From Escherichia phage REP4: DNA of 64,000 nucleotides. Below are positions 29,694 through 58,184 of the stretch, piece by piece. A program made the position numbers and the translations under genes. How positions within the stretch are numbered: position 1 is the stretch's first letter; every line of letters starts with the position of its first letter. Location of the stretch: the sequence record OQ174503.1; one strand, 5' to 3'. The notes beneath the pieces were generated by a model. The model did not search any database. It saw only the letters and a program-made list of their open reading frames with translations, and was not told the origin of the DNA.

Positions 29694-29897
29694 TTAATTC
29701 ATATTGCGTTTAATAACTTCAGCAACTTCTAGTAGTTCATCTTTAGTTGCAGTGTCGGATTGAATTTTATCTCTAATGTCCTTAAAGCGGTTTTTAAACT
29801 CTTCGGCTTCTCCCATATCGAAAAAGCGTTGAATGATTCTATATTCTCGATGAACTGCTTTATCAAAAAGTTCTAAATTTACTCTATATGATTTCAT
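29694..29897 (-). CDS. rIIA.1: Hypothetical 67-aa protein upstream of rIIA
   Basis: ORF track; position and size as T4 rIIA.1. Confidence 0.6.
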
Positions 29898-29922: not shown

Positions 29923-29952
29923 ATTATACCACATCCTTGTGGTAAAGTAAAC
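29923..29952 (-). promoter_or_regulatory. Early promoter (GTTTAC, 18 nt, TATAAT)
   Basis: Minus-strand GTTTAC at 29947-29952 and TATAAT at 29923-29928. Confidence 0.65.
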
Positions 29953-53196: not shown

Positions 53197-53219
53197 GAAA
53201 AAGGGACCCGGAGGTCCCT
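53197..53219 (-). terminator. Terminator AGGGACC-TCCG-GGTCCCT plus U-run after gene 43
   Basis: 7-bp perfect stem and T-run on the minus strand, 12 nt after gene 43 stop. Confidence 0.8.
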
Positions 53220-53231
53220 AGATTTATTCTA

Positions 53232-55928
53232 TCAGCCAAACAGGAAGTCTAACGAAGCTTTTTCTTCATAGTCCATACCCGCCGATTCACACATACCCGC
53301 AAGCGGTTTAACAAACGATTTTTGGAACAAAGTTGAGTAGTCAATCCAAGATAGTACGTCAGAACGAATTTCTTTTGGAAGTTCCGTACCCGATGGCCAA
53401 GCAATGCACTTGTCACCAAATGGATTTCCTTCACGTAATGGAAGAACCATTACCTTATTTCCATCCAAAATTGGAGCTACACCTAAACCACTAACAGCTC
53501 GACGATAAGTTAACACACCACGAATATGGAACGGGCATTTAAATCCTGGCCAACCTTTATCGTCATATTTCGCTATATCGTTCGCGGTTTTTACTTCAGC
53601 AATAACTTTATAGTCAAGTTGACGATATTCTTTCTCAAAGTTCTTGTAGTATTCTTGGACAGACTCTTCGCCTTCCTGAAGAATACGACGAATACTTTCT
53701 TCGAGAGCTTCTTGTACTGCTTTTGGTGTTGAACTCTGCTGAGTTTCCATACCCATGATTTTTAGATGTGGTTCAGCAAATCGCTTATCTTCCATATCAT
53801 AAACGTTCAGAGCATAACGTTTTTTCGCTTTCCAAAATCCACCAACACCCTTTGAACCAAGTGGAGGGCAAGAAATAGCTTCACGGTCCATATGCATCAG
53901 ATGCTCGCGATTATTCATATAATCACATAACTCACGATATGCAACATCAATCATAGGTTCCATCTTTTTCTTACCAAACTGATTCATGAATTCAACTAAA
54001 TCATTTTGTTCTTTAAAGCGGTCAAGACCTACTTTTTCAATTACTTTATCTACACAAACATATACCGAATCAGTATCACCTGCTGCGATGAAATCTTCAC
54101 CATTAGTTCCACACACTTTATTTAGATACTCATTAATTTTACGAGCAATCCACTGAATACCAACTTGACCGAAAATTGTGATAGCAGTAGCATTTCGCAA
54201 ATCATAGTAACGGAAATGAATATTACCAAGAGCACCATAAAGACTGTTAATAAGAATTTTACGGTTCAGCTGATTTGTGTTAGCAAGTGTAGCTGCTTTT
54301 TCACATTCTTCGATCAGACTATTGAGAACAGATTCGGTGTAATTTGATAGTTCATTTAAGAAATCATCACTGAACTTAACATATCGTTCAACTTCTGGTT
54401 TAGTTGAGCAAGACCCTGCACCTTTCATAATAATCTTTTTAATAGCTTCGGCATTCATTTCTTCAGCGAACATTTTCTTTTTCCAATCTTTACGCTGGAA
54501 AAATACTTTAGCGATTTCCTTTGGAATGATACCTTCTTGGTGCTTATCATACATCCATCCATTCGGAGAGCAAGAATATTCATCACTTGGCTTAGGAGCT
54601 GTTCCTGCGATATATTCATGAATTGGATGAACTTTAAACTGCCCACGAATAGTCTCAGGACTAATGTTAACCTGACGAATAATGCTAGGATACAGAGACG
54701 TCAAGTCAAAACTCATAATGTATCGACGAGCAATCGGTTTAGGTTCAAACACAAATGCACCTGGAAAACTCTGTTTAACGTGCGAACCTTGTTGAGGAAT
54801 AACCTTATGTTCACCTTTCAGTGAGTTAAAAATAATAGCATCCCAAGTTTTAATAGGACTCATTACACCAGAAAAAGGCATTTTAGCATAATAAGACATA
54901 CTTAAAACTAGATCGATAAACCCACGAATTTTATCAATTGCTTGAACTGATTCTACGTCAATGATGTTATAACTAATGTATCGTTGATGATTAGTCTCAC
55001 GAAGTTTATTAATAGGACCATCGTACGGCAATTTACCTTTTTTGGTTTCGTGCTGAGCAACTGATTCCAAAGAGAATGATGGCAAATTAGTAAATGCGAA
55101 TTTTTTGTACAAATCTAAATAATCAAGAATAGATACGCCATCAATCGAATAAATTTCTTTGCTACCGTACATATTTTGAATTAGTTTAGATTTTACTCGA
55201 CCGATTGGAGAGAAGCGTTTCATACTACGTTCACCGAGAACCATTTTAACACGGTTCATGATATACGGAACGTCAAATCCCTCAATATTCCAACCGGTAA
55301 AAATAGCAGGTCGTTTCTGTTCCCAGAGATTAATATATTCCATGAGCATATCACGCTCATTATCAAATGGCATATAAATTACTCGGTCAAGAATTTCTTG
55401 AGGAACTTCATCACCACCTTCACAGTCAAGTTTAGCAGCTAACTTTGCATCCCATTTTGATACTGAACCGTACATTGAATTCAACAAATCAAAGACGTAA
55501 AAACGGTCGTCAATTGAATCATAATGAGTGATAGCATCAATTTCATATTCTGCTTTCATTGGGTCAGGAAATTTATCACCAGTAACCTCAATGTCACAGT
55601 TAGCTACACGAACAAATTTTCGGTCATAAACAATTTCTGAACCATATGTATCACTGATATAAGCGAGTTTAAAATCGTTCATACCGAGAGCTTCGAGACC
55701 GATGTCTTCCATTCGTTTCATCCAATCTCGTGCATCTTTCATTGATGGAAATTTTTGAGGAGCACAGTTTTTACCATAAATGTCTTTGTATTTTGACTCT
55801 TCCTTACAGTGCCTAAACATAGTCGGAAGATATTCTACTTCACGGGTACGTTCCTTTCCGTTTTCATCAATGTAACGCTCAACAATGTTATTTCCGACTG
55901 TTTCGATAGAGATATAAAATTCTTTCAT
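53232..55928 (-). CDS. 43: DNA polymerase gp43 (family B), 898 aa
   Basis: ORF track; size identical to T4 gp43; exonuclease and polymerase motifs (DIEVTG, YGDTDS, KILINSLYG). Confidence 0.97.
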   Translation of the reverse strand: MKEFYISIETVGNNIVERYIDENGKERTREVEYLPTMFRHCKEESKYKDIYGKNCAPQKFPSMKDARDWMKRMEDIGLEALGMNDFKLAYISDTYGSEIVYDRKFVRVANCDIEVTGDKFPDPMKAEYEIDAITHYDSIDDRFYVFDLLNSMYGSVSKWDAKLAAKLDCEGGDEVPQEILDRVIYMPFDNERDMLMEYINLWEQKRPAIFTGWNIEGFDVPYIMNRVKMVLGERSMKRFSPIGRVKSKLIQNMYGSKEIYSIDGVSILDYLDLYKKFAFTNLPSFSLESVAQHETKKGKLPYDGPINKLRETNHQRYISYNIIDVESVQAIDKIRGFIDLVLSMSYYAKMPFSGVMSPIKTWDAIIFNSLKGEHKVIPQQGSHVKQSFPGAFVFEPKPIARRYIMSFDLTSLYPSIIRQVNISPETIRGQFKVHPIHEYIAGTAPKPSDEYSCSPNGWMYDKHQEGIIPKEIAKVFFQRKDWKKKMFAEEMNAEAIKKIIMKGAGSCSTKPEVERYVKFSDDFLNELSNYTESVLNSLIEECEKAATLANTNQLNRKILINSLYGALGNIHFRYYDLRNATAITIFGQVGIQWIARKINEYLNKVCGTNGEDFIAAGDTDSVYVCVDKVIEKVGLDRFKEQNDLVEFMNQFGKKKMEPMIDVAYRELCDYMNNREHLMHMDREAISCPPLGSKGVGGFWKAKKRYALNVYDMEDKRFAEPHLKIMGMETQQSSTPKAVQEALEESIRRILQEGEESVQEYYKNFEKEYRQLDYKVIAEVKTANDIAKYDDKGWPGFKCPFHIRGVLTYRRAVSGLGVAPILDGNKVMVLPLREGNPFGDKCIAWPSGTELPKEIRSDVLSWIDYSTLFQKSFVKPLAGMCESAGMDYEEKASLDFLFG

Positions 55929-55967
55929 AGATATTCCTTAGTTTATAGCCCGAGTTATTAGGCTCTT
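55929..55967 (-). promoter_or_regulatory. Gene 43 translational operator hairpin (autoregulation site)
   Basis: mRNA leader GAGCCUAAUAACUCGGGCUAUAAACUAAGGAAUAUCUAUG contains the hairpin just upstream of the SD, as described for T4 gp43 autoregulation. Confidence 0.6.
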
Positions 55968-55986
55968 GATATATTATACTCCAAAT

Positions 55987-56004
55987 AAGGGGCCGAAGCC
56001 CCTT
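55987..56004 (-). terminator. Hairpin AAGGGGC-TTCG-GCCCCTT between the 78-aa ORF and the gene 43 promoter
   Basis: Perfect 7-bp stem; a -10 TATAAT for gene 43 follows 9 nt downstream. Confidence 0.6.
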
Positions 56005-56008
56005 TGCT

Positions 56009-56245
56009 TTAAATTTCTATTGTACGACGCGATATAACGGACTTGCCATCTTTATTTGTGGTTTTGATAATCGCATGAAATGCGAGCTGGTGCGGGTAAA
56101 CTAATCGTTGGAATTCTTTTTGGAATTCTATTTGTTTATCTTCCGGGAGGTCAAAAACCAGTTGGGTAGAAGACAGACCATATGTATGTTTTAGATTTTC
56201 GAATATTAGAAAAGCTTCGGTAAACTGAATCTCTGATTGCGTCAT
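56009..56245 (-). CDS. Hypothetical 78-aa protein between regA and 43
   Basis: ORF track 56009..56266 shortened to ATG at MTQSEIQFTEAF with RBS AAGG just after regA stop. Confidence 0.55.
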   Translation of the reverse strand: MTQSEIQFTEAFLIFENLKHTYGLSSTQLVFDLPEDKQIEFQKEFQRLVYPHQLAFHAIIKTTNKDGKSVISRRTIEI

Positions 56246-56255
56246 ATAATTTGCC

Positions 56256-56624
56256 TTAATTACCAATCGTATATTTAGGAACGAGTTTCCATTCGTGTTT
56301 TTGTTTAAAAGAAATAACTCGGAAGTTATTGGTTAAATCTTTCATAAAAGTTCTTTGACCAGGAACGATTTCAATCAGCCCCCAATCTTCTAACAGCCAC
56401 GCAATCGAATCACGACGAACTTCATCTTCTTCTGTCATTTCAACCTGACGGCCATCCATACGAAGCATTTCTTTAAAATGAACGATATAGTATAGTCCTT
56501 TTTTCTGGAGAATGTGGCAGGACTGATACAGAACTTTATCTTTATTATTAGCAATTCCCATACGAGTCAAAGTTTCTTTTACTTTCAGAAAATCTTCAGG
56601 TTTTTTAAGAGTAATTTCAATCAT
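56256..56624 (-). CDS. regA: Translational repressor RegA, 122 aa
   Basis: ORF track; size and position (downstream of 62) as T4 RegA. Confidence 0.88.
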   Translation of the reverse strand: MIEITLKKPEDFLKVKETLTRMGIANNKDKVLYQSCHILQKKGLYYIVHFKEMLRMDGRQVEMTEEDEVRRDSIAWLLEDWGLIEIVPGQRTFMKDLTNNFRVISFKQKHEWKLVPKYTIGN

Positions 56625-56625
56625 T

Positions 56626-57189
56626 TTACCATTCCAATGCTAGTTTTTTGAGTTGTTTCTGTTCTTTTACATTCTTAGTCACTTCTTTTAAAAAATCATC
56701 CGTGACTAAACCTTTTAGTTCTTTTAATACTAAAGGAAGTTTTCCATTTTTAGTAAGAATTGATTTATAGTTAATTGCATCATTTGTATTAACTTGATAC
56801 CGCTTAGCAAGTAACTTAATAATCAATACTTCAGTAGAATCTTCGACCAGTTTTGCCCATTTACCATATCTTTTACCCCGAGGAACAGCAGCCATCAGGT
56901 AATTAAAATGGGCTTCATCGCTTAAACCTGATCCAATTAAATTCATAGCATATACAGCTGGCATGCATTCAGGAAATTGTGATAATGCATTCTCAACCAT
57001 GTATTTTGAATAATCTTTTTGAGCAATAGAACATTTAGTTTTATTATTAATAGCTCCAATTATTTCAAAAAACTCATTTTCAGCTTTTTCTTTAAAAGAA
57101 TCAGCAGCAGATTGGACAGCTGTCCAATCTTTTGAATACCAAGCAACTTGATGCTCGTTTAATTGAATATCATCTTCAAATAAGCTCAT
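56626..57189 (-). CDS. 62: Clamp loader small subunit gp62, 187 aa
   Basis: ORF track 56626..57210 shortened to ATG at [22 protein letters not shown]; overlaps gene 44 stop. Confidence 0.92.
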
Positions 57190-57190
57190 A

Positions 57191-58150
57191 TCACTTCCAC
57201 TGCATTTCACATGCCAATTGAATGAAAAGATATGCTAAATGTAATTCAGTATTAGCCGCAATTCCATGATACTGGTTATTTTCACCAACAATTTCATACA
57301 TACGAATAATACTTTGCGGAGTTACGCGTGTATAGATTTCTTCAGCAAGTTTACCAACGAACCACGAATAATCAGCCGCATATTTTGGTGCTAAAGCTCT
57401 GAGTTGTTTAACATCTTTATTTTTGAGAGACTCAAGAACATCATCAATAGCACCACGATCGTTAGTAACCAGTGATAAAATACCAGCATCCAAAACACCT
57501 TTAGATGAATAACTATCGAGCTCACCAATAGTTTTACGAAAATCAGGAAAATTCTTTTTAACCAAAGCTGCTACAACTTTCATATCAGCTATAGCAATTC
57601 CTTCATGCTTACAGATTTCAGTCAATCGACGAATCATCTGCTTCATCATTTCAATTTTATCTTCATCGGTCGGTTGACCGAACGTAATAACTCGACAGCG
57701 TGACTGAAGTGGTTTAATAATACCATCAATATTGTTAGCAGTAATAATAATACTACAGTTTGAACTATAAGCTTCCATAAAGGAACGAAGATGTCGCTGA
57801 GACTCTGCTAATCCTGAACGGTCAAATTCATCAATAACGATTACTTTTTGACGACCATCAAATGAAGCTGCACTGGCAAAATTAGTCAAAGGACCACGAA
57901 CGAAATCAATTTTACAATCTGATCCATTCACAAACATCATATCAGCATTTACATCATGACACAATGCTTTTGCTACAGTTGTTTTACCTGTTCCTGGAGA
58001 AGGAGAATGAAGAATAATATGTGGAATCTTACCTTTACTTGTAATAGATTTAAAGGTTTCTTTATCAAAGGCGGGAAGAATACATTCATCGATAGTAGAT
58101 GGACGATATTTCTGTTCAAGAATGTGTTCTTTTTCATTTACAGTAATCAT
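57191..58150 (-). CDS. 44: Clamp loader large subunit gp44 (AAA+ ATPase), 319 aa
   Basis: ORF track 57191..58165 shortened to ATG at [17 protein letters not shown]; Walker [11 protein letters not shown]. Confidence 0.94.
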
Positions 58151-58184
58151 AATTTCCTCATTCAAGTTTTAGTGTAAATTATAA

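Follow-up and report, generated by a model that had tools for sequence, protein, structure and literature searches.

orf43.1, an accessory gene between regA and gene 43 of Escherichia phage REP4

The variable orf43.1 locus of T4-like bacteriophages was reportedly described in 1990 by Miller and Jozwik (J Bacteriol 172:5180, [quoted passage not shown]). For T4 itself, the promoter and operator of gene 43, which encodes the DNA polymerase, have both been characterized. The promoter P43 is one of the T4 middle promoters identified by experiment and starts at position 29933 (PMC2988021), with the gene 43 ATG following 40 nt later at 29893. The consensus for the MotA box is (a/t)(a/t)(a/t)TGCTTtA, located 12 ± 1 bp 5ʹ of the −10 element (PMC2988021). 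The T4 gp43 operator is an 18-base hairpin-loop with UAAC at the core of its loop (PMC3014915). Together with a further hairpin and the ribosome-binding site, the −10 element and the operator hairpin make up the T4 region between regA and gene 43, and all four are the same in the DNA considered here.

The regA–gene 43 junction in T4 and in phage REP4

The window analyzed here is a 64,000-nucleotide stretch of Escherichia phage REP4 (OQ174503.1). All genes around the junction are on the minus strand, in the order 45, 44, 62, regA, a 78-aa open reading frame (ORF) and gene 43 (Table 1). The ORF, orf43.1, opens with an ATG at 56245, 10 nt past the regA stop codon, and ends with a stop at 56011-56009; it has its own AAGG Shine-Dalgarno (SD) sequence 8 nt 5ʹ of the ATG. 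The best megablast match is the Escherichia phage vB_Eco_EH2, which is 100% identical over 55850-56350. The elements listed in the initial annotation, namely the 78-aa ORF, a GC hairpin, a TATAAT and the operator hairpin, are all found where it had placed them on the minus strand. In the list of ORFs, gene 62 opens at a GTG (56626-57210) and gene 44 at a TTG (57191-58165), both 5ʹ of the annotated ATGs. These starts are ORF-calling artefacts and mark no real difference, gp62 beginning MSLFEDDIQ... as it does in vB_Eco_EH2.

Table 1. Coordinates of features between regA and gene 43 in the REP4 window
Feature	Position	Strand	Basis
regA, translational repressor, 122 aa	56256..56624	-	Pfam PF01818, E 1.2e-74; phrog_242; regA in annotation of matching records
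regA stop codon	56258-56256	-	
orf43.1, 78 aa, RB18/RB51-type allele	56009..56245	-	PF25760; phrog_3826; RB51ORF050 95% identical
C(UUCG)G hairpin AAGGGGC-UUCG-GCCCCUU, 7 bp, then AUUUGG	55987..56004 (56004->55987)	-	
−10 hexamer TATAAT of gene 43 middle promoter P43	55973..55978 (55978->55973)	-	Identical to T4; gene 43 −10 annotated in X00769
gp43 translational operator hairpin AGCCU-AAUAACUC-GGGCU, 18 nt, 5-bp stem, 8-nt loop AAUAACUC	55947..55964 (55964->55947)	-	Identical to T4
Gene 43 SD AAGGAA (55939->55934) and ATG (55928)	55926..55939	-	RBS annotated in X00769
Gene 43, DNA polymerase, 898 aa	53232..55928	-	ORF list; DNA polymerase in all matching records

The window matches the T4 reference genome (NC_000866.4), RB32 and JB75 at 100% over the stretch that runs from AAGGGGCTTCGGCCCC past TTATTTGGAGTATAAT, the operator hairpin and the SD to the gene 43 ATG, and T2, F13076 and FL34 also match it over this whole length. 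The gp43 operator and the −10 hexamer, which the initial annotation had called intact, are identical to those of T4. The difference between the two phages lies upstream. In T4, which has no gene at this position (NC_000866), as the initial annotation had supposed, the hairpin directly follows the regA stop, whereas in the window, the 237-nt orf43.1 and a 10-nt spacer stand between the two. Because the block from AAGGGGCTTCGGCCCC to the ATG is identical in T4, the hairpin was not brought in with the ORF.

On these comparisons, the window can be assigned with high confidence to a Tequatrovirus that carries an RB18/RB51-type orf43.1, a dispensable accessory gene placed between the regA stop and the hairpin preceding gene 43. 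The regulatory block ahead of the polymerase gene is invariant among the close relatives of T4. The arrangement is an ordinary one, and nothing in the sequence points to a changed control of gene 43.

Family, alleles and loss of orf43.1

The protein encoded by orf43.1 has a sole Pfam match, to PF25760, "Phage RB18 ORF43.1 protein", which spans profile positions 3-69 of 69 and scores 105.3 bits (E = 1.5e-30) against a curated gathering threshold of 27 bits. It also matches phrog_3826 (E = 9.3e-33). The ORF also occupies the place of the named gene, with regA before it and gene 43 after it on the same strand of a T-even-type phage. GenBank notes in RB51 (RB51ORF050) and RB32 (RB32ORF047c) describe the copies there as "similar to RB18 43.1", and the slur03 record names its homologue "putative protein ORF43.1". 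Judged by these matches, orf43.1 is a genuine gene that encodes a conserved protein of the PF25760 family. It is likewise an already known and named optional accessory gene, so that the novelty implied in the initial annotation falls away.

The RB51 protein is 95% identical to that of the window, from which it differs at H20, H52, L54 and R74. In codons, the two copies differ by four non-synonymous and three synonymous changes, which indicates no strong constraint at that scale. Such a lack of bias toward synonymous sites within the allele, and the shortness of the ORF, are what a chance non-coding reading frame or a dead remnant might display. This explanation is scarcely credible, however, given the strength of the PF25760 match, a frame that stays intact with its core residues kept across five genera at 38-55% identity, and a confident structural model (described below). 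An origin as a homing endonuclease or mobile-element insertion was also considered and rejected: the product is 78 aa, no nuclease domain (GIY-YIG, HNH) or mobility gene is found, and the fold is not nuclease-like.

A megablast search with positions 55850-56350 of the window retrieved about 516 T4-like phage records. The window allele is present over at least 80% of the query in 68 of the 516, and a second allele, the RB32 type, is commoner, with 178 records. By tblastn, 312 records have some homologue of orf43.1. About half of the close relatives of T4 have the gene. Most of the remaining records, including T4, T2 and RB6, have no ORF at this place as the result of a clean stop-to-stop deletion, and span 252 bp, as opposed to 475-501 bp. 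The RB32-type allele resembles the window allele in family, position and downstream block. Unlike the window allele, it encodes 73 aa, lacks the N-terminal extension and begins a single nucleotide past the regA stop codon. The two proteins are only 42-47% identical, whereas the flanks of the two Tequatrovirus alleles are ~97% identical in DNA.

Homologues between regA and gene 43 occur in five genera of the Tevenvirinae: Tequatrovirus, Gaprivervirus (for example, vB_EcoM_RZ), Dhakavirus (IME341), Moonvirus (CF1) and Kanagawavirus (IME523). In a protein alignment, the homologues are 38-55% identical and share 13 invariant residues and a conserved core (K19, Y22, L24, F31-D32-L33, Q38, F41-Q42, P51, G67 and R73). 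A HMMER search of 1.84 billion representative proteins returned only about 7 genuine clusters, all of one small family, which is confined to enterobacterial T-even relatives. A 1157-aa repetitive match in the same scan was set aside, as it looks spurious. Some orf43.1 proteins are filed as hypothetical proteins of "Escherichia coli", one of them on a 346-kb contig; these entries probably stem from phage sequence within bacterial assemblies or from a concatenated assembly. Additionally, several homologues are annotated with N-terminal extensions of 85-127 aa, which appear to be wrongly called starts that extend back into regA.

By CDS coordinates, 1 nt separates the regA stop from the orf43.1 start in four genera and the RB32 type, and 10 nt in the window allele. 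A gap of 1 nt suggests that in most lineages the translation of orf43.1 would be coupled to that of regA. The window allele, with its 10-nt gap, has its own AAGG SD. In transcription, orf43.1 would be the last cistron of the 45-44-62-regA unit.

The T4 junction reads GGTAATTAA followed immediately by GCAAGGGGC, the TAA stop of regA running straight into GCAAGGGGC. This is the exact product of dropping 223 nt, from the regA stop to the orf43.1 stop, from an RB32-type allele. Since orf43.1 is syntenic in five genera, T4 most likely lost the gene; its presence would then be the ancestral state, and T4 a deletion variant that arose by a clean stop-to-stop deletion. Loss is also evident in JB75 (vB_EcoM_JB75, 263-430), where a 1-nt insertion in an A-run of an RB32-type copy shifts the frame and leaves a 55-aa remnant. 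The absence of the ORF from T4 and T2 and the remnant in JB75 thus indicate that orf43.1, as judged from these genomes, is dispensable and has been repeatedly lost. A 40-aa remnant of the RB32-type allele is also seen in Citrobacter phage PhiZZ23.

The initial annotation had seen here the reverse, an ORF and a terminator inserted ahead of the gene 43 operator, which might alter the coupling of gene 43 to 45-44-62-regA; such a module would insulate the gene from the upstream operon. The lack of the ORF in T4 fits such a module, as does the hairpin, with its terminator-like appearance and its annotation as a terminator in some records. However, T4, T2, RB32 and the window agree at every base of the hairpin, −10, operator and SD; the ORF alone differs and lies upstream of the hairpin. 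The synteny of the ORF in five genera points to loss in T4 and not to gain here. An inserted module is therefore highly improbable. The alignment with the T4 regA-43 region, which had been proposed as a check, contradicts the inserted terminator and reveals the stop-to-stop deletion in T4; the direction of change is probably opposite to the one suggested, and the identity of the hairpin-to-ATG block with that of T4 leaves no sequence reason for altered coupling. Many T-even phages do carry the same ORF, but T4 is not one of them, and the ORF has no known function.

The window protein is nearer to its Dhakavirus homologue (54% identity) than to the RB32-type protein found in Tequatrovirus itself (42%). 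In DNA, ~60 bp of the window (55972-56034), from the last ~25 nt of orf43.1 across the hairpin and the −10, share 89-91% identity with the Gaprivervirus phages RZ (vB_EcoM_RZ 1501-1556) and TH44. The likeness to Gaprivervirus DNA and the closeness to the Dhakavirus protein hint at an exchange of alleles between genera via the conserved flanks.

Predicted structure and possible roles of the ORF43.1 protein

An AlphaFold2 model of ORF43.1, built from an alignment of 29 sequences, has a pLDDT of 93.8 and a pTM of 0.80. It consists of two helices (residues 3-21 and 35-49) and a β-hairpin (55-63/69-77), with no recognizable enzymatic or nucleic-acid-binding fold. The protein is mildly acidic (pI 6.3; 4.7-6.3 among the homologues). 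A Foldseek search of the PDB with the model gave nothing at E ≤ 0.001, and the best E value in a sequence profile search of the PDB was 0.1. In BFVD, a structure search found only family members and uncharacterized proteins of T4-like phages, and PADLOC returned no matches to defence or anti-defence models. ORF43.1 would most likely act by binding another protein, as a non-essential modulator specific to certain hosts or conditions.

Several roles can be weighed against these data. One possibility, tentative at best, is that orf43.1 is a fast-evolving host-interaction gene that serves in counter-defence or host takeover, has no tie to regA or gene 43, and has its alleles swapped by recombination in regA on one side and in the hairpin, promoter and operator on the other. 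Consistent with this role are the small size and acidity of the protein, the repeated loss or frameshifting of the ORF, and a divergence between the two Tequatrovirus alleles that is far greater than that of their flanks; the proximity of the window allele to Dhakavirus and the Gaprivervirus-like DNA at the end of the ORF point the same way. On the other hand, the lack of a match to any defence or anti-defence model or to a known fold speaks against it, and a strict place beside regA in five genera, mostly with a gap of 1 nt, would be unusual for a free cassette.

That same invariant place between regA and gene 43, with a start 1 nt past the regA stop in four genera and the RB32 type, could instead mark ORF43.1 as an accessory of the replication and translation-control module, for example, a modulator of RNA binding by RegA or gp43, with coupling serving stoichiometric co-expression. 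This role appears quite unlikely. RegA and gp43 autoregulation was worked out in T4, a phage that functions without the ORF, the model has no RNA-binding fold, and the family is limited to its few clusters in enterobacterial T-even relatives, whereas all T4 relatives examined encode regA (PMC2993671). A broader proposal holds that ORF43.1 works either as a partner in regA/gene 43 control or in counter-defence, and that selection by particular hosts underlies both the divergence of its alleles and its repeated loss; this, too, is unlikely. If it were true, the RB51 type, the RB32 type and the deleted state would form a natural allelic series affecting polymerase or RegA regulation or host range. 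Taken with its dispensability, the strict regA-adjacent place of orf43.1 in five genera makes the gene a reasonable but minor candidate for study.

Hairpin, promoter and operator preceding gene 43

The folding energy of the C(UUCG)G hairpin is −13.1 kcal/mol, a stability attained by 6 of 200 shuffled sequences. In the minimum-energy fold of the region, this GC hairpin and the operator hairpin are both present. The hairpin is kept in all five genera, with energies of −11.5 to −13.9 kcal/mol and compensatory changes at three of its seven pairs (GGGGC/GCCCC, GGGAC/GUCCC, GGGCC/GGCCC and GGAGCC/GGCUCC). Its conservation and the compensatory changes therefore identify the hairpin as a selected structure. 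A search of Rfam found no family for the region, the sole match being a chance miRNA hit (E = 1).

Annotations of the hairpin vary among GenBank records. In G50 and JB75, it is a putative terminator, and in fPS-90, its sequence falls within a predicted middle promoter. The hairpin was not called in a consensus terminator scan of the minus strand. After the full 7-bp stem, the tail is AUUUGGAG; only when the stem is read as 5 bp (five G-C pairs) does the tail become UUAUUUGG, which has five U in eight and is moderate. The hairpin is a likely 3ʹ end or terminator of transcripts of 45-44-62-regA-43.1. On the RNA, the hairpin and its U-rich tail would act as an intrinsic terminator, probably a partial one, and as a 3ʹ-end stabilizer for the 45-44-62-regA unit.

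The 1984 T4 record X00769 (X00769.1) gives the hairpin region as GCAAGGCTTCGGCCCC. At ~451-452 of that record, two G's are missing from the 5ʹ arm, which reads GCAAGGCTTCGG as opposed to GCAAGGGGCTTCGG in NC_000866.4 (262-268), T2, F13076 and FL34. The missing G's are probably due to gel compression in the GC hairpin. On the strength of this entry, it was considered whether the deletion in T4 had cut the hairpin back to a stem of 3 bp (−4 to −5.5 kcal/mol) and left a weaker terminator. The idea arose from the two G's missing in X00769, a sequence error in an old entry, and was rejected because the GGGGC arm is complete in NC_000866.4, T2, F13076 and FL34.

The same DNA overlaps the promoter of gene 43. 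P43 has a sigma-70 −10 element (TAnnnT), here TATAAT, without a sigma-70 −35; a promoter scan found no sigma-70 −35 match or sigma-70-type promoter upstream of the TATAAT. The region 17 bp 5ʹ of the TATAAT lies inside the hairpin, and the −30 region of P43 falls on GGCTTCG, which is made up of the hairpin 5ʹ arm and loop. The suggestion that the −35 region would fall within the hairpin is accordingly correct for the window, but it is not a peculiarity of this phage, as the same is equally so in T4. GGCTTCG is also the motif most like a MotA box, with 5 of 7 positions matching TGCTT(t/c)A, and it stands 15 bp from the TATAAT as opposed to the canonical 12 ± 1 bp.

By analogy with T4, the gene 43 transcript is expected to start near 55966-55968 in the window, ~38-40 nt 5ʹ of the ATG. 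The operator conforms to the T4 description in its sequence, being 18 nt long with UAAC in the loop and extending to the gene 43 RBS. The DNA of the hairpin would thus have a second use, supplying the −30 region of a MotA-dependent P43, where transcription of gene 43 mRNA carrying the operator would begin. As the ORF lies wholly upstream of the hairpin-to-ATG block, the presence or absence of orf43.1 should not alter the control of gene 43.

A further hairpin lies just past the gene 43 stop, at 53202-53219. It is a perfect GC-rich palindrome, AGGGACC-CGGA-GGTCCCT. Both strands are called terminator-like here, and only the minus strand, the sense strand of gene 43, has a T-run.
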